A stretch of DNA of 64,000 bases from the NCBI RefSeq assembly GCF_030013595.1, contig NZ_CP122768.1; one strand, written 5' to 3'. Shown here piece after piece: positions 7,428 to 64,000 of this stretch. Position 1 is the first letter of the stretch. Each line of letters begins with the position of its first letter. This stretch comes from Escherichia coli. GTDB lineage: Bacteria; Pseudomonadota; Gammaproteobacteria; Enterobacterales; Enterobacteriaceae. Under the pieces are notes generated by a model. It had not been told where the DNA came from. It did no database searches and saw only the letters and a list, made by a program, of their open reading frames with translations. The position numbers were made by a program, and so were the translations under genes.

Positions 7428-9332
7428 TTAGAACGATGTTACCCAGCTACGGCCTCTATTTGGGCGTCTGACGATGTTTTGACGTTGTGGTCGTGTGATT
7501 GGCTTAGTTTCTTCGATTTGCTCGTCAGATTGCGATTTAGGAGCTTCTACAGGTTCTTCTGGTTCACGGTTCAAACTATCTTTGATGGCTTCGAGTTTTT
7601 CCCATGACATTTTATTGAGTACATGACGAGAAGCAGCATAGGAATAAGCCAGGCAGTCCAACGCTTCGTTTCGTGTTTGTCCAACTTTTACCCAACGTGT
7701 GGTATTACCCTGCCGTTTCAACTGTTCAGAAAGCAATTGCTCGCAATAGTCATCAGGAACGTCACCAATCTGGAAGACAGTGTGAGGATCGCCATCTCTC
7801 AAGTTCCGGTTAATCATTTCACGGATCATCGTTTTAAGGTTGTTTACGCCCAGAATTTTAAGGGTAAAACCACCCGTTCTTGTGTCTTTTACCGGAAGGA
7901 TTGGTGCATCAACATTGCTTGCGCCTTTAATGGCGGTTAGATTTTGCCACCGACTACAGAATCGATAGATCACGTTTGTAGCTCGTCCGTTCGATGAGTC
8001 CACGAAAGCAGATAACATCGGGATTCGTTCACCGGATCGGGTATAGAATTTAGCTTTCAGGAAGTTGTAAAGCTGGTTATATGCTGGTGATTCGTGGCGT
8101 TCGCAGTTCACATCATAGAATGATCGGTGATCAACTACGCATAGCCCTTTACGAGAAATACCCAGCAAGGTAGATTCCAGACGGTCTTTTTGCTGGTCAA
8201 CTCCACCTACCAGAGCCAGTACATCATCAGGAATATTGTCTAGGCTAATATCAGTTTTCAGCGTTTCTAATTCGTCGGCTGTGCGGTCTTCGTTAAGATC
8301 ATCGAAGGTTTCACCGAGGACTGTATTGTAGAACGTTGCCAGGGACATATTCGCGTAGCTATCAGCAAAGTCCACCACACACGCACGGATAGAACTAAAC
8401 GGAGACATAAGGCGGTTAGCATGAAAACCGATTACTTCCGCGTTTGGTTCGGTGGCGACCCATTCTCCCTGTCCAACAGCACGTAGGCGATCACCCTCGG
8501 TCCAATCGGTTTCACATTCAGGGCAACGGTAAACGGCTGTATCTGGGTTGGGTAATGATTTACCGTTAATCGTATGCCAATCGAAATGTACGTTACTCCA
8601 TTCCATTACGTGCTTGTGTCCGCAATGCTGGCAAACGACATGATATTTTCTCTTATCCGAGAGTTCCCATTGTTGGTTAATCGCCCCATCACGAGCGGTT
8701 GGAGTGGAAGCAATTACGATCCTTGCATCTTCCCCGAAAGTGGTTGCGCGTTGTTCCGCTAGTTGGATCGGGTTCCCTTCGTCTGACTCATCAGCCGCAT
8801 CAACTTCATCAAGAATAATCAAAGGGAGTGTTTTACCGCGAAGATGTGACGGACTATTCAACGACATGAAATACATAAACGATCCGTTACGAAGCTGAAT
8901 AATCGATGAGTTGTTAACGGCATTGCGATCTGATTTGTCGGTGATCATCGCCTTTAATTCTGGTGTTGCCTCTAATACTGGCTTCACCTTACCAGCGATC
9001 CAAGAATTTAGTTCTCTAACGTTACTTTGCAACACCCCAATATTAGTAGGGTTACTCGCGATCCGATGGAAGATAATTCCGTTAAGAATCATGGTCTTAC
9101 CCAACTGTGCCGAACATTTAAACACAATTTTTCTACGGTCTTCGGTGATCGCGTCCATCATTCCACGTTGGAAGGGATGCAATTTAATTAGCGATCCGGC
9201 TTTAACACCATCGGTTGCAACTACATTAGCCTCTACCCATTCGCTAGGTTTCATCGTTTTAGGTGGGCGAATTGCCGCAGAGATATTTTTAAGAATCTTT
9301 TTTAATTTTGCCTTGTTCGAAATCAGTTTCAT
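7428..9332 (-). CDS. Terminase large subunit, lambda GpA family, 634 aa
   Basis: ORF track; recalled lambda gpA similarity: ..HPFQRGMMDAI.. near N-terminus, Walker-A-like KCSAQLGKT, C-terminal RNEALDCLAYSYAA matching gpA RNEALDCFVYALAA. Confidence 0.85.
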   Translation of the reverse strand: MKLISNKAKLKKILKNISAAIRPPKTMKPSEWVEANVVATDGVKAGSLIKLHPFQRGMMDAITEDRRKIVFKCSAQLGKTMILNGIIFHRIASNPTNIGVLQSNVRELNSWIAGKVKPVLEATPELKAMITDKSDRNAVNNSSIIQLRNGSFMYFMSLNSPSHLRGKTLPLIILDEVDAADESDEGNPIQLAEQRATTFGEDARIVIASTPTARDGAINQQWELSDKRKYHVVCQHCGHKHVMEWSNVHFDWHTINGKSLPNPDTAVYRCPECETDWTEGDRLRAVGQGEWVATEPNAEVIGFHANRLMSPFSSIRACVVDFADSYANMSLATFYNTVLGETFDDLNEDRTADELETLKTDISLDNIPDDVLALVGGVDQQKDRLESTLLGISRKGLCVVDHRSFYDVNCERHESPAYNQLYNFLKAKFYTRSGERIPMLSAFVDSSNGRATNVIYRFCSRWQNLTAIKGASNVDAPILPVKDTRTGGFTLKILGVNNLKTMIREMINRNLRDGDPHTVFQIGDVPDDYCEQLLSEQLKRQGNTTRWVKVGQTRNEALDCLAYSYAASRHVLNKMSWEKLEAIKDSLNREPEEPVEAPKSQSDEQIEETKPITRPQRQNIVRRPNRGRSWVTSF

Positions 9333-9498: not shown

Positions 9499-9732
9499 AT
9501 GACTATGACTACTAAAGCTACTCGCGGTCGCCCTGCCCGTTATACTCGTGAACAGATGGCTGATATTGCCTACGCTTACTATACAGCGGATCGCGGGAAG
9601 GAAGCGAAAGAACAGATTCTTAGTGAACATGGGATTTCAGTAGCCCAATTCTATAAGAATATGAAGAAGTTAGACATTAAATTCTATGTTCAGATCGATG
9701 ACGGTCAGATCGTAGAAGCAACAGGTTTTTGA
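9499..9732 (+). CDS. Small putative DNA-binding protein, 77 aa (paralog of 13446..13628)
   Basis: ORF track; N-terminal RGRPARYTRE motif shared with the second small protein (ARPVKFTRE); own promoter and terminator. Confidence 0.45.
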   Translation: MTMTTKATRGRPARYTREQMADIAYAYYTADRGKEAKEQILSEHGISVAQFYKNMKKLDIKFYVQIDDGQIVEATGF

Positions 9733-11825: not shown

Positions 11826-11883
11826 TTGTCAAGTGCGATAATCATAAAAAAGTTTGAAGATATTGTCAAATACCACTTGACAA
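11826..11883 (-). promoter_or_regulatory. Consensus sigma70 promoter (TTGACA-17-TATGAT, minus strand) bracketed by a 10-bp inverted repeat TTGTCAAGTG / CACTTGACAA
   Basis: -35 at plus 11864-11869, -10 at plus 11841-11846; inverted-repeat arms at 11826-11835 and 11874-11883. Confidence 0.5.
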
Positions 11884-12094: not shown

Positions 12095-12700
12095 TCTAAT
12101 ATTATTTATAAAGAGAAAATTCTTGTTATTATGAAAGGAGTGATCTGGTAGAGTCCAAAACTGGTCTGTACTTGAAAGGTGATTGGATTCAGTCGGGCAA
12201 AGCCCTCCTTCATGTTTTGATTAAATCATCATCAAAACGAAGAAGTATCTTTAGAATATAAGATCTTTCTTTTGGAGAAATAATAATCAGGAAGCAATTT
12301 GGCAACCGAAGGTTGCAATCCCGAAGGGATAACCAATACCTTTCTAGAAAGTGATTGTTACTCACTTCGTTCGTTTACTAGAATCAGTTATCATCTGGTA
12401 TTAAATCCCTTTCTAAGAAAATCCTTTCAAAAGTGATTCTCGATGCCACGCAGTGGCGTCGCAGACGTTTGGGAGTGAGCGAAGCGAGCGAGCAAACTAG
12501 TTAATTCCTTCTAAGACCATCTAGTATCATCTAGTTTAAATTAGTTGTTACTAGAAGCAATTGGTTGGCGCTTCGCGCAGTCGGGCTAAAGCCCTCCTAA
12601 TTATCTTTTTGGTTATTTGTTGTTTTTAGTTTTACACATGAGCGTAGCGAATGTGTTATATAATATCTATGCACGCCCAATCCCCCGCTTTTTCCCCTCA
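12095..12700. other. ~600 bp hairpin-dense non-coding region (candidate structured RNA or DNA-level origin/packaging signals)
   Basis: No ORF; many short-loop hairpins (GCAACC-GAA-GGTTGC, ATCCC-GAA-GGGAT, GCCAC-GCA-GTGGC, GCGC-TTC-GCGC); CTAG-rich; ~20-bp direct repeats CAGTCGGGC(T)AAAGCCCTCCT at ~12190-12209 and ~12578-12598. Confidence 0.5.
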
Positions 12701-12743
12701 CTAAGTTAATGTTTTATAAAGAGTTTTTCTCACCAATCCTTTT

Positions 12744-12931
12744 CGGGGGCAAATTTCAGGGGCAAAAATTAGATTTTCAGGGGCAAAAATAGTGGGTTTC
12801 AGGGGCAAAAATGAGGGGCAAAATCACTGTTTCCCAGAATTTCAGGGGCAAAAATAGTGGGTTTCAGGGGCAAAAATGGGATGTGGAATCTAGGGGATTT
12901 TGGTTCAGGGGCAAAATTCAGGGGCAATTTT
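12744..12931 (+). repeat. Iteron array: 9 copies of (TTCA)GGGGCAAAAAT, including an exact 38-bp duplication
   Basis: Read directly; copies at ~12746, 12759, 12780, 12802, 12815, 12845, 12867, 12908, 12921; 38-mer TTCAGGGGCAAAAATAGTGGGTTTCAGGGGCAAAAATG at 12777 and 12841. Confidence 0.85.
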
Positions 12932-12968
12932 CATAGTGTAGGGCTAGTGTAGGTTTGAAAATCCTTTG

Positions 12969-13025
12969 TTGACACTGTGTAGGATCGGTGGTATACTTGA
13001 AAATTCGAGATAAATATGTTATAAT
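12969..13025 (+). promoter_or_regulatory. Tandem near-consensus sigma70 promoters next to the iterons
   Basis: P1 TTGACA (12969-12974), 17 bp, TATACT (12992-12997); P2 TTGAAA (12997-13002), 17 bp, TGtTATAAT (13017-13025). Confidence 0.55.
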
Positions 13026-13171
13026 ATTTGTATTGAAAGTGAAAATTTACCGATTTTCCTTCCTATTGTTATCACCGTGTTAAATTGTTATATGTCTGTG
13101 AAGATTTGGATCTGAGAGAAAATCTTGTAACAAATCTTTACAATTCATAGCTCAATTAATGCTCACCGCTT

Positions 13172-13310
13172 TAGCAAAAAGTGCTATGCCTTTTTCTAAA
13201 TTGATTGAATATACATCAATTTGGTTAAATCGTGTTCTTCGCTTTAGCAATTCGTGCTGTGGTTTAACACATTTAACACGTCTGATAACATCTGAATAAC
13301 ATTTTAACAT
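13172..13310 (+). promoter_or_regulatory. Operator-like palindromes and phased TAACAY repeats upstream of the 60-aa gene
   Basis: TAGCAaaaagTGCTA (13172-13186) and TAGCAattcgTGCTg (13245-13259); five TAACAC/TAACAT copies at ~10-11 bp spacing in 13264-13310. Confidence 0.45.
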
Positions 13311-13445
13311 ATCTCTGTTATAAATACATATATAAGAGATAAATGTGAGGGGTTGAAAAATAAAATACAATCCCATATAAATAATAGTGAGCGGTTAACG
13401 CTCTTTTTTAAGAAATCATTAATCCACATTGTAGGAGGATTCGAG

Positions 13446-13628
13446 ATGGCACGACCTGTTAAGTTCACTCGCGAAATCATCTTAGAAATGGCTAAACGCT
13501 ACTTTGAGTTAACGCCGGGTGTGAGAATTGAAGAGTGGTTTAAAAATGAGGGCATCGATAAATCAACCTTTCATAAACTGCTAAAACGATATGACATTAA
13601 AGTGAAGATTGAAGCTACCGTTTGGTAA
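13446..13628 (+). CDS. Small putative DNA-binding protein, 60 aa (paralog of 9499..9732)
   Basis: ATG with AGGAGGA SD inside tracked ORF 13353..13628 (which begins at TTG); MARPVKFTRE motif. Confidence 0.5.
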   Translation: MARPVKFTREIILEMAKRYFELTPGVRIEEWFKNEGIDKSTFHKLLKRYDIKVKIEATVW

Positions 13629-13742
13629 TCAACTTTGACTGAGAATTATATGATGGCTTTAAAAAAGAAAAAGCCTCCTTTGCTGCAACAAGGGAGGCTT
13701 GAAATGAACAATTAAAACTAACTTTCCATAGGAGTATTTATA

Positions 13743-14684
13743 ATGTTATTTTCCGCTAACTTTTTCACTAACGAAGTAACCAACGCTAAAGCAGTTATCA
13801 AATTTGGCACCGAAGCAAACAAGAAGATTCAGCCGAAAGTTGTTGCTCATGTTTCCTTTGCGCAGCAGAAATCCGCTTTCGCTGGCTTTAAAGCACATCG
13901 TGAAGCACTGATCGCGGCTGGCTTTGGTGTTGACGGTAAACTGCCTAACGGCATTCGTAAAGCAATCGACCGCGTTAAACCAGTTAAAGACGTTGCAGTA
14001 GACCACATCGTTACTTTTACCGTTAAGAACTCTTCTGAACTGTTCCACCTGGTTATTGCTGGTGATACTGCTATCGTTTCCGCTCCTAACATGGATTTTC
14101 AGGATACCGCTGATTGCCAGATCACCTTCGGTCGTCGTAAAGAAGTTACCGGAAAAGCTAAACTGAACTTCACTAAATCCGGCAATCCTTACTTTGCTGT
14201 ATTCTTTAACAGCCACGCTACCGAAAAAGAAGTTGTAGAACTGGTTGCTTATGAAGGTGAAGAGAAAGAACGTATTGAATCTTGCGAAGCATTTCTGGAA
14301 CTGGAAGCACAGGTGAATGCTGTTTCTCCGGTTGTTGAAGATCGCTTTGCTGCACTGGAAGCACAGATCGCAGAACTGAAAGCTGCACTGGAAGAAAAAG
14401 ACCAGATTATCGAAGCACAGAAAGCTGAGATTGAAGAACTGAAAGCTAAAGAAGTTGCTCCGGTGGCAGTAGTTGAAAACGCGGCTGATGAGGCCGCAAA
14501 TGATGAAGTAGAAGTGAAAATCGATGTGATGCGTGATCCGATGGCTGCACTGCAATTACTTCGTTCTTTTAAGGGCAAATCTCATTTTTCTAGTGATGTA
14601 GAAGATGAGGAAGAAGAACAGAAACGCAATGCTGCAATGCTTCATGATGAAATGTACGGTACTAACTTTTCTTACTGCCAATAA
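13743..14684 (+). CDS. Hypothetical protein, 313 aa: unrecognised N-terminal domain, coiled-coil, acidic C-terminal tail
   Basis: ORF track; AGGAG SD; heptad-like ALEAQIAELKAALEEKDQIIEAQKAEIEELKAKE; no NTPase or nuclease motif seen. Confidence 0.5.
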   Translation: MLFSANFFTNEVTNAKAVIKFGTEANKKIQPKVVAHVSFAQQKSAFAGFKAHREALIAAGFGVDGKLPNGIRKAIDRVKPVKDVAVDHIVTFTVKNSSELFHLVIAGDTAIVSAPNMDFQDTADCQITFGRRKEVTGKAKLNFTKSGNPYFAVFFNSHATEKEVVELVAYEGEEKERIESCEAFLELEAQVNAVSPVVEDRFAALEAQIAELKAALEEKDQIIEAQKAEIEELKAKEVAPVAVVENAADEAANDEVEVKIDVMRDPMAALQLLRSFKGKSHFSSDVEDEEEEQKRNAAMLHDEMYGTNFSYCQ

Positions 14685-15345: not shown

Positions 15346-15903
15346 TTAAGACACATCAAATTCATCGTCTTCTTCTGGTTCTTGTTCTTCCGGTTCATCC
15401 ATTAATGGTAATTCTTCTTCCTCGTCTTCTCCCAAATCTGCATTTTCGAACAAGTCCCCTACTTCATTTAAACGACGCTCGATGATCTCCCTTAGCTTAT
15501 TCTTTAATGTTTTCTGGTCATTGGCAGATTCGAGAATTTCTAGGGCATCGATCGTACAAATCTGCAAAATAGTCTGCTTCACTTTCCCGCAATATTCCGC
15601 TAGTTGCTGTTCTACATAACCGACAGGAATCAGGAGGTTCATTTTTTCCTGATTCTCTCGTTCGGCTGCATCTGCCATTGCTCTTTCTCTGCGGAGACGT
15701 TCTTGATCAATCGCTTCTTTGATTGAAGTTTGTTTAAGTGGGTTAATTACGTTCTTTAGCACCCAATCGCAACCTTCCTTTGCCGGAACACGCCTCTTAT
15801 TGGTATTGTAAGGTAGTCCCCTTTCTAACCATCGCTTACCGCCACCATTCAATGTATAGCCATATAAACGGGAAATTTCTGTAAGGGTTAATTCTTCTTT
15901 CAT
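15346..15903 (-). CDS. Nu1-like small terminase subunit candidate (winged-HTH protein with acidic C-terminus), 185 aa
   Basis: ORF track; strong GGAGGA SD; GGGK and W.ERGLP motifs loosely like lambda Nu1 (recalled); first gene inside the element boundary. Confidence 0.4.
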   Translation of the reverse strand: MKEELTLTEISRLYGYTLNGGGKRWLERGLPYNTNKRRVPAKEGCDWVLKNVINPLKQTSIKEAIDQERLRRERAMADAAERENQEKMNLLIPVGYVEQQLAEYCGKVKQTILQICTIDALEILESANDQKTLKNKLREIIERRLNEVGDLFENADLGEDEEEELPLMDEPEEQEPEEDDEFDVS

Positions 15904-16350
15904 TGGTTATCCTCCATTAAATTTGCGTAATTTTATTTATTGGTTTTACGCAAAATCTAAGCGCCTAAATCGCATTCTAACGAAGGGAAAGATCCAGTAA
16001 TGGTAAGGGCTAGGAAGTGGGTTAATAGTCGCGTAGCGACCGCGCTAGGACTGCACTGATCACGTTTTAAAATCTCACACGCACATCAAAAACCGGGGTG
16101 CCGAAAACTCGCTTTATCTGACCCCGATCCAGAACCTAAATCATTTGTCAAGTCTTTCCGATTCAGTAAAGGGGAACATGCATCTAAGCTAGAGAAGCTC
16201 ATAAAGACTAAGTATGAATGCGGTGTTGTTAGTCGGGATGATATGCGAGACGGTTACACTGAAACGCTACCATTTGAAGCATTGCCGGAGATCATCACTA
16301 TCACCAACAAAATGATAAGCGAAAGCATCCTCGTAAGTAATTGATTCCTA

Positions 16351-16394: not shown

Positions 16395-16724
16395 TTATTG
16401 GGGTTTACAACATTTAGGTTTGCCAATTCGTCTGGCTAACTCTTGCTGAGTGATTTCTGACTGTAAAAAAGCATTTAACAGCAATACCTTAGAGGCGACA
16501 CTCAAAGGCACTTCAATAAAGTGATCGTGACTATTTAATGGCGAAGGTAACGGGATAAGCTCGTTATCTTCAAAATAAAAATCAAATGCGGTCAGTAAAG
16601 CATCTTTTGCCGCTTCCATCGCTTCAGCAACTGTTTCGCCCTGGGTCAACGCTTCAGGGATATCCACAAAAGAAACCATATAACCGCCTTCCGGCGCGGG
16701 TGTAAGAGTGACGGGATAACGCAT
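16395..16724 (-). CDS. hicB: HicB antitoxin, C-terminally truncated at the element junction
   Basis: Matches recalled K-12 HicB from MRYPVTLTPAPEGGYMV.. through ..ARRIGKPK, then 5 non-native codons (CCKPQ) and a stop; C-terminal DNA-binding domain missing. Confidence 0.7.
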   Translation of the reverse strand: MRYPVTLTPAPEGGYMVSFVDIPEALTQGETVAEAMEAAKDALLTAFDFYFEDNELIPLPSPLNSHDHFIEVPLSVASKVLLLNAFLQSEITQQELARRIGKPKCCKPQ

Positions 16725-29197: not shown

Positions 29198-29413
29198 AAT
29201 GTCTGCCTCCAGTGGTCAGTAATCTGGAGTGTAGGTAACCGCATTCACTCTGGCGGGAAGAATTTGCAAACTGTGATCTCGCCGCGAAAACATTAATATT
29301 ATCCATTTTGATGTAATACAATTGCTTTAATTGTTAATAATATTTTGCAATCAAGTTATCATAATCAAACAACTTCACTTGTCAGCGACACCGCTTCGTT
29401 TTTAACATCGCTT

Positions 29414-62296: not shown

Positions 62297-62487
62297 GATT
62301 CATTTCGCAAATGTGCTGACATTTTCCCCTCTAATCCGTACCATACACGCCACAGTTTTTATATCAGATTTCTTATGCTGGGCGTTCCGGCATGACGCAT
62401 ACTCTTCTGATGCCATATAACGAATTGAGTCGCTTTTAAATGTCGCAAAATCAAGAAATTAGTAAGAAAGAACAATACAACCTGAAC

Positions 62488-62643
62488 AAGTAAGGGCAAA
62501 AATCACAACTATCTGACGCATAATAATTTTATTTATTTTTCAATACGTTAAGCAACATCAACAACTACAATAAGCTACGATAACCCACTCTTTTTTTGCC
62601 CCATTTTTGCCCCTTTTGCGGCTTTTTGCCCCATTTTTGCCAC
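62488..62643. repeat. Second GGGGCAAAAA(T) motif cluster (one forward copy, four to five inverted copies)
   Basis: TAAGGGCAAAAATCAC at ~62491; TTTTTTTGCCCCATTTTTGCCCC..TTTTTGCCCCATTTTTGCCAC at 62592-62643; same core as the 12744-12931 iterons. Confidence 0.7.
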
Positions 62644-62803: not shown

Positions 62804-63370
62804 TTATTCCACTACAAAATTCCTAACCGACCTCAAATCCTCCAGACTGCTCAGTTCCTCTTTCATCTCCCGCTGACGCCGATAAATCTCATCGTTGCGA
62901 TCGACCTGTGCCTGCACCATTGCAGTAAGCAGCTCATCCAGTTTCTGCATCGACAGTTTCACCTGTTGATTATCGGCATCACCCCACGCAAGGGTGGTTC
63001 GTGCCGTATCGGATTTCGCCGCCATTACTACCGGATAAAGACGGGCCATTGAGTCGGGGCCAGCATTCCAGGTACGACCGTTCCATTCGAACGTGAACGG
63101 CTGCGCTTCCTGTTCTGCACGCCAGGCGTTGATTTCCTGGCGTTTAGCGGCTTTTGCCGCTGCGATAAGTTCCGGCGTGACGGTGAACGGGGCGATTTCG
63201 CCCCATTTGCCGCTTTGTAACTCTTCCCAGATACGCTGACCTGTTGTTGCCGTGTCTTCTGGTGTGGCGGTGTACGGAACGGGGGCTTCCATACCCTCAA
63301 ACAGAACATCGCAGTCAATCGCACCGGATTCGGTATAACGGGGACTGGTAATCTCTTTTATCTGCATCAT
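62804..63370 (-). CDS. Tail fibre assembly (chaperone) protein, 188 aa
   Basis: ORF track; directly downstream of and overlapping a tail-fibre ORF. Confidence 0.55.
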   Translation of the reverse strand: MMQIKEITSPRYTESGAIDCDVLFEGMEAPVPYTATPEDTATTGQRIWEELQSGKWGEIAPFTVTPELIAAAKAAKRQEINAWRAEQEAQPFTFEWNGRTWNAGPDSMARLYPVVMAAKSDTARTTLAWGDADNQQVKLSMQKLDELLTAMVQAQVDRNDEIYRRQREMKEELSSLEDLRSVRNFVVE

Positions 63371-64000
63371 GCAATCCTCACAAACAAAGAAACTAAGCCC
63401 CGGTTATAAAACTTAACATCCGGGCCGCCAGATAAAGCGACATATGTACCAGGCAGGGTACCCCCGTAGACAAATGACCTCGCAGCAGCACTAAATCCTG
63501 ACGTGCGATACTCCGCTTCAAAGACCACCTGCCGGAGTCTTGAGCCTGACACGCCTTGTGCACGAAGTAACGTAACCTCACTGCTGCCATCGTCCGGTAG
63601 GTATGCAGCAAGAACCAGGCCTCCGGGGAACGGAGGACGCTTTGATGTATTTTCTGTTGCATACAACAGTTGCATCAGGCTATTACGTGACCAGAACAAC
63701 CGCGACCATGCTTTTGGTAGGTCTGGCGGACGCATGGATTTTTTAACCAGTACCTGATATTTCGCAGGACCTTCACCGAATCCCCCATCGTATTCTGCAT
63801 CACCATGAAACGTTATCCACCGACGCGCTTCTGCTTCAATACCGGCAGAGTCAATTCCGTATCGTATGTCTATATCCACAAGTCCACGGAAATAAGGTTG
63901 CCCCATGTCATACGCAATGATGGGGTTATACGAAGTGTTAGTCCCTCCATATTGTGTTACCGCGTAACGCCCGGGGGTGACTTCGAACACCCATTTCAGA
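63367..64000 (-). CDS. Tail fibre protein, C-terminal part (5' end beyond window)
   Basis: Tracked ORF 63367..63990 begins at a GTG 10 nt from the window edge and the frame stays open to position 64000. Confidence 0.5.
   Translation of the reverse strand, partial: LKWVFEVTPGRYAVTQYGGTNTSYNPIIAYDMGQPYFRGLVDIDIRYGIDSAGIEAEARRWITFHGDAEYDGGFGEGPAKYQVLVKKSMRPPDLPKAWSRLFWSRNSLMQLLYATENTSKRPPFPGGLVLAAYLPDDGSSEVTLLRAQGVSGSRLRQVVFEAEYRTSGFSAAARSFVYGGTLPGTYVALSGGPDVKFYNRGLVSLFVRIA

Follow-up and report, generated by a model that had tools for sequence, protein, structure and literature searches.

A prophage in a 64,000-nt stretch of the Escherichia coli chromosome (NCBI RefSeq assembly GCF_030013595.1, contig NZ_CP122768.1; this whole stretch is called the window) carries an array of nine direct copies of a 12-nt motif, AGGGGCAAAAAT, upstream of the gene for a 313-amino acid (aa) protein, p313. 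Comparison of related prophages indicates that the array and p313 probably constitute a cognate, interchangeable cis/trans pair, in which a multi-site nucleoprotein complex would be built on one face of the DNA helix. The prophage, which is ~38 kb long, of the serine-integrase type and inserted in hicB, holds the array in its main divergent control region. The features that carry this finding are:

12745-12931, + strand: array of nine direct AGGGGCAAAAAT 12-mers, defined by motif counts, alignment of relatives and phasing
12689-12699, - strand: degenerate inverted copy of the motif, TTTTTCCCCTC, apparent from the alignment of relatives and missed by the initial annotation of this DNA
12934-12983, + strand: two TAGTGTAGG copies (12934-12942 and 12945-12953) and one GTGTAGG in the spacer of promoter P1 (12977-12983), read from the sequence
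13743-14684, + strand: gene for p313 (313 aa), the putative cognate binder of the array

The GGGGCAA core of the motif occurs nine times on the + strand of the array, at positions 12746, 12759, 12780, 12802, 12815, 12845, 12867, 12908 and 12921, with spacings of 13, 21, 22, 13, 30, 22, 41 and 13 bp. Across the window we counted 21 GGGGCAA matches, against 8.5 ± 2.7 in shuffled sequences, and 14 matches with at most one mismatch to the 11-mer GGGGCAAAAAT, where 2.2 ± 1.5 were expected from shuffles. The initial annotation had described nine copies of GGGGCAAAAAT; nine direct copies are indeed present, but they are not identical, with five exact and four variant copies, one of the latter carrying a single mismatch. 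The exact duplication that it had put at 38 bp was likewise found, with a measured run of 39 nt inside a 43-nt duplication (12771-12813 versus 12836-12878; 98% identical, one mismatch). When the arrays of the window and of a diverged relative (locus L070) were pooled, the motif proved to have sharp edges, with ~2 bits over the 12-mer core and ~0 in the flanks. All 14 adjacent spacings in these pooled arrays deviated by no more than 2.5 bp from a whole number of 10.5-bp turns (chance, ~0.5^14), indicating that the sites share one helix face. Among relatives the array comprises 6-9 copies, their number varying through deletions of 22 or 66 bp between repeats.

Evidence for selection came from L070, a prophage that matches the present one in layout but differs in most of its non-coding flanks and spacers, and whose protein, P0122, is 56% identical to p313 in the N-terminal domain. 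Its array contains seven perfect copies of AGGGGCAAAAA(T) among unrelated spacers, plus one inverted copy (L070:4873), so the motif itself is under selection. Together with the helical phasing, this agrees with the earlier view that the repeats are a genuine array of the protein-binding type. At the inverted copy of the window (12689-12699), most relatives and L070 read TTTTGCCCCT, the reverse complement of AGGGGCAAAA, and the position mutated in the window is a G in most relatives. The TAGTGTAGG pair just upstream of the promoter is kept in loci with the AGGGGCAAAAAT array (type A), including the diverged L070, and GTGTAGG is the motif of a second array type (type B); the GTGTAGG-type copies at type-A promoters may be left over from a type-B array or may let a type-B protein cross-regulate the locus. 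In the literature and in Rfam, we found no known operator or centromere that has the array motif.

The pairing of array and protein emerged from three sets of loci: 17 relatives aligned over the non-coding block, 13 informative loci recovered through TerL, and 17 loci typed for both array and protein. Among the TerL-recovered loci, the array was present wherever the p313 gene was present (8/8) and absent wherever the gene was absent (5/5). Three array types occupy one slot in these sister prophages, namely AGGGGCAAAAAT (type A), GTGTAGG (type B) and CGGGGA (type C). Type B, found at four loci, comprises 6-10 copies of (TA)GTGTAGG(TTT) and is paired with a 331-341-aa protein; type C, found at one locus, comprises ~16 copies of CGGGGA(T/A) and is paired with two 333-aa proteins. 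Array type equalled protein type in 17 of the 17 typed loci. Between loci L062 (type A) and L058 (type B), which have the same leader and flanks that are 90-96% identical, exactly two segments are non-homologous: ~490 bp containing the array, and the protein gene from its start codon. Because ~860 bp of homologous DNA separates the two swapped segments, the association between array and protein exceeds physical linkage. Joint exchange of a site and its protein is also seen in modules for replication origins and for plasmid maintenance.

The small paralogous proteins encoded nearby, which had been put forward as candidate binders, did not show this behaviour, and the co-variation points to p313 instead. 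One and the same allele of the 60-aa protein is found beside arrays of types A and B, and at least four different alleles accompany the type-A array, which rules out the 60-aa protein as the specificity partner. TerS, Rha and the 110-aa protein were rejected as partners for want of co-variation with the array: the Rha, 110-aa and 94-aa genes vary independently of array type in the 13 TerL-recovered loci, all of which contain the TerS, TerL, 77-aa and 62-aa genes, and TerS and TerL are 83-99% identical across all three array types (TerS, 83-90% at the nucleotide level; TerL, 90-98%). The region upstream of TerS is also 82-98% conserved across array types. The 60-aa protein is basic, its gene always lies upstream of that for the big protein, and it contains what we take, from our own reading of the sequence, to be a helix-turn-helix (HTH) comparable to that of some small terminases and transposases. 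It is a paralogue of the 77-aa protein, with which it shares an (A)RP.K(F/Y)TRE... N terminus; both genes are oriented opposite to their neighbours, the 77-aa gene being divergent from TerL.

The architecture of p313 suits a DNA-binding protein that would oligomerise. A basic N-terminal alpha/beta domain (residues ~1-165; net charge +7, isoelectric point (pI) 9.6), predicted in a low-confidence model, is followed by a long helix of the coiled-coil type (~182-236) and then by a tail that is acidic (net charge -23), disordered and ends in LHDEMYGTNFSYCQ. Basic N-terminal domains are found in types A and B (net +7 to +12, pI 9.5-9.8), where the remainders are acidic (-23 and -34), and the coiled coil and acidic tail are found in types A and B and in the first type-C protein. 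The N-terminal domains of types A and B have no detectable similarity to one another. Types A and B have a C-terminal motif in common (LHDEMYGTNFSYCQ and LHDAIYDTNYSAYA), which was the only part shared, and weakly, in profile-profile comparison of type A with types B and C. The C-terminal module is exchangeable, as P0122 and P0127 carry a different one. Co-variation, charge and architecture together suggest that p313 binds the array.

Database searches placed p313 in no described family. Comparison of p313, the type-B and type-C proteins and the 60-, 77-, 110- and 183-aa proteins with Pfam, NCBIfam and PHROGs returned only coiled-coil noise, and p313 matched no PDB sequence beyond the coiled coil. 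Fold searches, for which the query was the low-confidence model, gave no match and no ribbon-helix-helix or HTH. A word-indexed search with p313 returned only matches that were at least 99% identical; an exhaustive search of 1.8 billion representative proteins with its N-terminal domain yielded just two real full-length relatives. Only E. coli fragments were found with the type-C N-terminal domain and with the shared C-terminal motif. A partial match, H128, was excluded as a new N-domain type because it is an IS3-truncated copy (IS3 is also listed in the strain of H126). The p313 family is thus an orphan without a Pfam, PDB or fold match.

The array lies at the end of a conserved non-coding block (~12172-12935 in the alignment of 17 relatives). 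The block falls into two parts that are rich in short hairpins:

12172-12439: part conserved in all three array types (array-less loci keep 267 of 569 nt), with hairpins GGGC-AAA-GCCC (12195-12205), GCAACC-GAA-GGTTGC (12302-12316) and ATCCC-GAA-GGGAT (12318-12330)
12440-12744: type-specific part, exchanged with the array (from the comparison of L062 with L058), with hairpins GCCAC-GCA-GTGGC (12445-12457), CGTC-GCA-GACG (12457-12467), GCGAAGC (12479-12485), GCGC-TTC-GCGC (12568-12578; GNA loop on the other strand), GGGC-TAAA-GCCC (12583-12594) and GCGTAGC (12642-12648)

Perfect short GC hairpins number 8 over 596 nt, where shuffles gave 0.56 and the remainder of the prophage 0.95 (~15-fold enriched), and those of the C-GNA-G form number 5 against 0.01 expected. 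In diverged relatives hairpins occupy equivalent positions with compensatory stems (for example, GCCAC-GCA-GTGGC and GTCCC-GTA-GGGAC). We found no convincing promoter reading through the hairpin block. Mini-hairpins including CCGAAGG, which is present twice in the block, have been reported at the G4 primase site, RSF1010 ssiA and N4 early promoters (PMC13037366). The hairpins could be single-strand initiation signals, cruciforms or RNA elements. A further hairpin of this kind, GTCGC-GTA-GCGAC, lies upstream of TerS (16029-16041).

Downstream of the array, towards p313, the following features were found:

12969-12997 and 12997-13025, + strand: tandem sigma-70 promoters, P1 (TTGACA-17-TATACT) and P2 (TTGAAA-17-TATAAT)
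13004-13412, + strand: AT-rich (~67% AT) leader ending in an intrinsic terminator, from terminator prediction and RNA folding
13446-13628, + strand: gene for the 60-aa basic protein
13671-13700, + strand: conserved terminator-like hairpin, AAGCCTCC...GGAGGCTT, between the 60-aa and p313 genes, followed by a T run in relatives

The two overlapping, near-perfect promoters (12969-13025) recorded in the initial annotation were confirmed, each scoring 11/12 and each having a TG before its -10 element. The adjacent AT-rich tract, noted at the same time, is also real, with a GC content of 0.33 over 12901-13800 versus ~0.41-0.45 in the surrounding prophage, but an unwinding-type element is not what it resembles most. 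Its terminator (stem at 13389-13403 plus a T run) lies just before the 60-aa gene, and its predicted fold has an energy of -103 kcal/mol, versus -71 ± 4.7 for shuffles (z = -6.8). Given the strong promoters in front, the terminator at the end and the strong folding, the tract is better explained as the template of a structured, terminated leader or other non-coding RNA. The leader exists in three unrelated versions, all ended by a terminator; the unrelated leaders of L058 (4506-4813, - strand; z = -3.7) and L070 (5190-5462; z = -2.9) also fold better than shuffles. A scan of the leader and the 9-18 kb region against Rfam returned nothing relevant. The leader may be a regulatory or immunity RNA, with P4-like or attenuation-type control. 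With a second terminator-like hairpin following that of the leader, p313 expression would be expected to be tightly limited.

Mosaicism separates the array from these promoters. Directly after the last repeat there is a breakpoint: three loci (L006, L024 and L034; form 2) keep the array, and unrelated sequence with its own consensus promoter, TTGACAACTGTCAAGGATTATTTTATACT, takes the place of everything from the promoters through the AT-rich tract to the 5' half of the 60-aa gene, so that array and promoter are ~130-210 bp apart, versus 38 bp in the window. Since the promoter segment is swapped and the distance changes while the array stays, the array does not behave as an operator or activator site of fixed geometry. 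The array had previously been tied to the promoters and the AT-rich tract as a single origin or centromere layout; the order of repeats, promoter and gene holds, but the linkage does not. Leader type and array/protein type also reassort independently.

Guided by these observations, we tentatively favour the view that the array is the recognition site of p313 and most likely an iteron-type replication origin, with p313 as its initiator, serving the induced or excised phage; this statement, taken as a whole, falls somewhat short of being probable. In such a mechanism, p313, whose gene lies 0.8 kb downstream, would read the 12-mer AGGGGCAAAAAT with its basic N-terminal domain and oligomerise through the coiled coil, so that 6-9 sites on the same face would be bound cooperatively in one large nucleoprotein complex. 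A partner would be recruited by the acidic tail, whose terminal motif is conserved, and the adjacent, very stable GNA-loop mini-hairpins would supply priming or entry signals. Array and protein would form a specificity cassette of which the prophage family holds at least three interchangeable versions. In the prophage state, the strongly terminated, structured leader and the second terminator ahead of the gene would keep the initiator silent.

Several points argue for a replication role. The order of repeats, promoter and gene is that of such modules, and no other initiator is recognisable in the complete relative described below; the p313 gene sits behind two terminators, as expected for a function that is off in lysogeny. 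The neighbouring mini-hairpins point the same way, as do three perfect DnaA boxes (TTATCCACA) in L070, at 5692, 5712 and 5851, within 170 bp, which lie in a ~320-bp insert between the 60-aa gene and the p313 homologue. In lambdoid phages, immunity and replication modules reassort separately, and the leader and array/protein types reassort in a like manner.

Other observations weigh against it. L070 is the only relative with perfect DnaA boxes; the prophage part of the window has none, its single one-mismatch box lying at 13420, and the array region has no IHF consensus. The adjacent AT-rich DNA looks like a transcribed leader rather than an obvious unwinding element. GC skew merely follows gene orientation, and the module was found on no plasmid in PLSDB. 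p313 shows no Rep_3 or lambda-O-like similarity and is unlike any known initiator, and its head, coiled coil and tail, encoded downstream of an array, fit centromere binders that work without a nucleoside triphosphatase (NTPase), and some repressors, equally well. Of the proposal in the initial annotation that this is an iteron origin or a centromere-like site, the resemblance in layout thus stands; a perfect DnaA box, an IHF consensus, a Rep_3 protein and an unwinding element were not found, and both are to be taken as readings rather than demonstrated functions.

Comparison with named systems shows where the module agrees with known origins and where it departs from them. With the iteron theta origins of pSC101, F, R6K and P1 oriR (Rep_3/RepA), it has in common the same-direction repeats on one helix face, some of them spaced by 21-22 bp, one inverted copy nearby, the gene for the putative binder immediately downstream behind its own promoter, specificity pairs that are interchangeable between related elements and, in L070, the three DnaA boxes. 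The core site, however, is 12 bp here and 17-22 bp there, and the spacing here is irregular (13-55 bp): in the window, three of the eight spacings (range, 13-41 bp) correspond to the ~22 bp, or two turns, of iterons. p313 also differs in having a coiled coil and an acidic tail and no Rep_3 or winged-helix signature, and the window in having no perfect DnaA box or IHF consensus, an AT-rich flank that reads as a structured leader, and an integrated phage as the element. The origins of lambda type resemble it in their A-tract-containing repeats bound by a phage initiator, and GGGGCAA arrays do occur in replisome-organiser-like genes of two viral contigs (L016 and L021); lambda iterons, however, lie inside the O gene, whereas this array is intergenic and upstream of the gene for a protein unrelated to lambda O. 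RSF1010 oriV and the G4-type complementary-strand origin likewise place GNA mini-hairpins beside repeats, and two of the hairpins here hold CCGAAGG as in ssiA (PMC13037366), but there is no RepB'-type primase or RepC-type initiator here, and seven to eight hairpins, as candidate signals, compare with two.

A rather less probable explanation is that the array is the operator of an autoregulated factor, with p313 repressing, activating or silencing the adjacent early promoters and the array versions representing regulatory or immunity specificities. The array does lie directly upstream of two consensus promoters that drive the operon of p313 itself. Switching of specificity between otherwise near-identical temperate phages, as seen here, is typical of immunity regions, and a DNA-binding head, coiled coil and regulatory tail are also the layout of the Mu repressor, which p313 resembles. 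Direct-repeat arrays serve both as operators and as centromere in StbA of R388, which provides a precedent (10.1101/2022.04.29.490116). The independent exchange of the promoter segment, with the distance changing from 38 bp to ~130-210 bp, nevertheless leaves no fixed geometry between operator and promoter, and 6-17 direct repeats across 190-300 bp would be unusual for an operator. Small palindromes at the -35 regions (TTGACAACTGTCAA and TTGACATGAGTCAA) suit a different, dimeric regulator; a strong leftward promoter at 11841-11869 has no motif copy near it; and a lysogeny repressor would not be expected behind two terminators. In a look at polylysogeny prompted by the immunity idea, p313 was single-copy in all 36 genomes that carry it, which gives this comparison no power.

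That p313 on the array acts as an NTPase-less centromere, positioning or partitioning the excised circular phage genome, for example on reversible excision from hicB or ycdX, seems unlikely, even though the layout is that of stbS/StbA, tubC/TubR and the single-protein Par of pSK1. The stbS site has two sets of five 9-bp direct repeats with an 11-bp cycle upstream of the operon of StbA itself (10.1101/2022.04.29.490116), tubC has seven 12-bp direct repeats bound by TubR, and pSK1 relies on a single protein, Par (10.1101/2022.04.29.490116; 10.1101/2024.07.25.605149). Those systems and parC/ParR resemble the present one in having arrays of 7-10 short, phased direct repeats upstream of the operon of the binder, and a DNA-binding N-terminal domain (putative in p313) with a non-conserved C-terminal effector domain; the exchangeability of the C-terminal module here matches what has been reported for StbA. 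StbA and pSK1 Par also have no cognate NTPase gene beside the array, and no partner NTPase is recognisable between TerL and the end of the prophage. The setting, a prophage with a large serine recombinase inside host genes, is one of reversible excision in other bacteria. The plasmid repeats, however, are contiguous, whereas the spacers here are variable and the element is integrated in the chromosome, where it needs no partition; the plasmid centromere binders have an HTH or ribbon-helix-helix, whereas p313 has no sequence or fold similarity to them and no homology to ParR, TubR, StbA or Par. Each of the 30-odd copies that we examined is integrated in a chromosome, no plasmid in PLSDB carries one, and nothing points to an episomal state.

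A packaging site of the pac or cosB kind, at which p313 would serve as an additional small terminase and restrict packaging to the DNA of its own phage type, is very unlikely. It is suggested by the position of the array between genes for a Nu1-like TerS (15346-15903) and TerL (7428-9332), and by the generic layout of p313: small terminases have a DNA-binding head, a coiled coil and a tail, which in p313 could contact TerL, and short repeats in a bent array are what pac and cosB sites consist of. Yet the terminase does not follow the array, as TerS, TerL and the region upstream of TerS are conserved across array types, a complete lambda-type gpA/Nu1-like pair is already present, and p313 has no similarity to any terminase family. 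Least of all do we credit arm sites bound by an integrase or an excisionase, like those of the Rac-type arm (62592-62643). This reading was suggested by the recurrence of GGGGCAAA in several diverged Rac-type arms, 100-150 bp away from the ttcA core, and beside a tyrosine integrase in L047. For the present array it is effectively refuted: the repeats lie 3.5 kb within the prophage, the family uses a large serine recombinase, which needs no arm sites, and the stretch from TerL to the prophage end contains neither a tyrosine integrase gene nor one for Xis.

Whether as an origin, which we favour, or as a direct-repeat centromere, the module would act outside the families that define such sites, as no homology to Rep_3, ParR, TubR or StbA was found. 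It is possible, if doubtful, that p313-type proteins, with a basic, beta-rich head whose fold is not recognised, a coiled coil and an exchangeable acidic tail, are an undescribed class of sequence-specific DNA binders which, with phased 12-mer arrays and GNA mini-hairpins, make up a new phage origin or episome-maintenance module unrelated to DnaA, Rep_3, lambda O and ParB/ParR. Such a module might let a serine-integrase prophage that interrupts hicB or ycdX persist, or be replicated, once it has been excised. Should p313 bind the array, it would found a new DNA-binding family in which three or more specificities occur naturally and can be interchanged, and on which the evolution of recognition could readily be studied. 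The same finding would supply the missing replication or maintenance function for a little-known prophage lineage of E. coli and Shigella in which neither an initiator nor a repressor can be recognised. As only about 0.7% of complete E. coli genomes carry this lineage, its interest would lie in mechanism and not in epidemiology.

The motif also occurs outside this prophage. A second, shorter cluster, missed by the initial annotation, lies on the - strand at 62592-62643, in a different (Rac-type) prophage with tail-fibre genes at 62804-63990, and comprises four 11-bp-phased copies (GTGGCAAAAAT GGGGCAAAAAG ...GGGGCAAAAAT GGGGCAAAAAA) at ~100-150 bp from a truncated ttcA start (62440-62493). The GGGGCAAA motif occupies the same place in diverged ttcA-integrating phages (L011, L022, L015, L029-L032, L041, L008 and L052), including Rac-SA53, and is there probably an integrase-arm or excisionase site. 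This Rac-type arm is like the array in its GGGGCAAA(A/T) motif and its three to four phased copies, but the copies lie within ~150 bp of a tyrosine-integrase core, whereas the array is 3.5 kb from a serine-integrase attachment site; within one cell, p313 might conceivably cross-bind to this arm. GGGGCAA arrays are also present in unrelated viral contigs: those of L016 (4016-4066) and L021 (1429-1499) lie inside lambda-O-like replisome-organiser genes, where they are read as ...FCPP... and ...KGAKF..., that of L047 (6092-6362) is directly downstream of its tyrosine integrase, and that of L004 (6748-6780) is near a primase-like gene. We therefore rejected any function read from the motif alone, given that GGGGCAA arrays occur in attachment arms, beside integrases and inside replisome-organiser genes, and that a fixed short motif searched over 2.9 million contigs is expected to match unrelated arrays.

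The window is E. coli-type chromosome, in which the prophage spans <1 to ~16420, with its right junction in the 3' end of hicB. From left to right, its remaining features are:

left part of the prophage, leftward: tail and head genes
7428-9332, - strand: TerL (phrog_15)
9499-9732, + strand: 77-aa protein
between the 77-aa gene and the array region, - strand: 183-aa, Rha/Ant 279-aa, 110-aa and 62-aa proteins
~1.3 kb: non-coding region holding the array
between p313 and TerS, - strand: 94-aa membrane protein
15346-15903, - strand: Nu1-like TerS (phrog_57)
~16395-16425: right attachment site (attR)

As the initial annotation had stated, no initiator, primase, helicase or ParA/ParM gene is recognisable nearby, here from TerL to the prophage end at ~16420. 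The attR core lies only ~25 bp past the point where shared phage sequence stops. Strain ETEC1703 has a complete relative, also ~38 kb and inserted in ycdX. Its genes include those for a large serine recombinase (559 aa), a helicase and two nucleases, whereas an initiator, a primase and a repressor could not be recognised; on the right it is identical to the window up to '...ttattggaaa' and continues with a related but different core. The family thus targets the hicB 3' end or ycdX, with related, differing cores beside an identical phage end (window, ~16395-16425; L002, ~29300-29330), and encodes the large serine recombinase at the opposite end. Insertion leaves hicB with a shortened or altered product of 116 aa.

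We found no description of this prophage family in the literature. The sequenced-phage collection, searched as DNA and protein, contained no match to the array region, p313 or the type-B protein, and its closest TerL is only 44% identical. The region is present in ~56 of 5,426 complete E. coli genomes and p313 in 36, and no PLSDB plasmid matched p313. Metagenome-derived contigs of ~35 kb were considered as possible free genomes and rejected, since all end inside hicB and are therefore integrated.

Two minor observations concern the rest of the prophage. ARAGORN called a 91-nt tRNA-Gln at 2586-2676, inside an open reading frame (2441-2911, - strand) of the head-tail region, which is probably a false positive. 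Upstream of TerS, 15904-16130 is a candidate cos region, with a 9-bp inverted repeat, TTTGCGTAA-N15-TTACGCAAA, and a GC hairpin; it is conserved at this place in all relatives, and the gap between TerS and TerL is ~6 kb.

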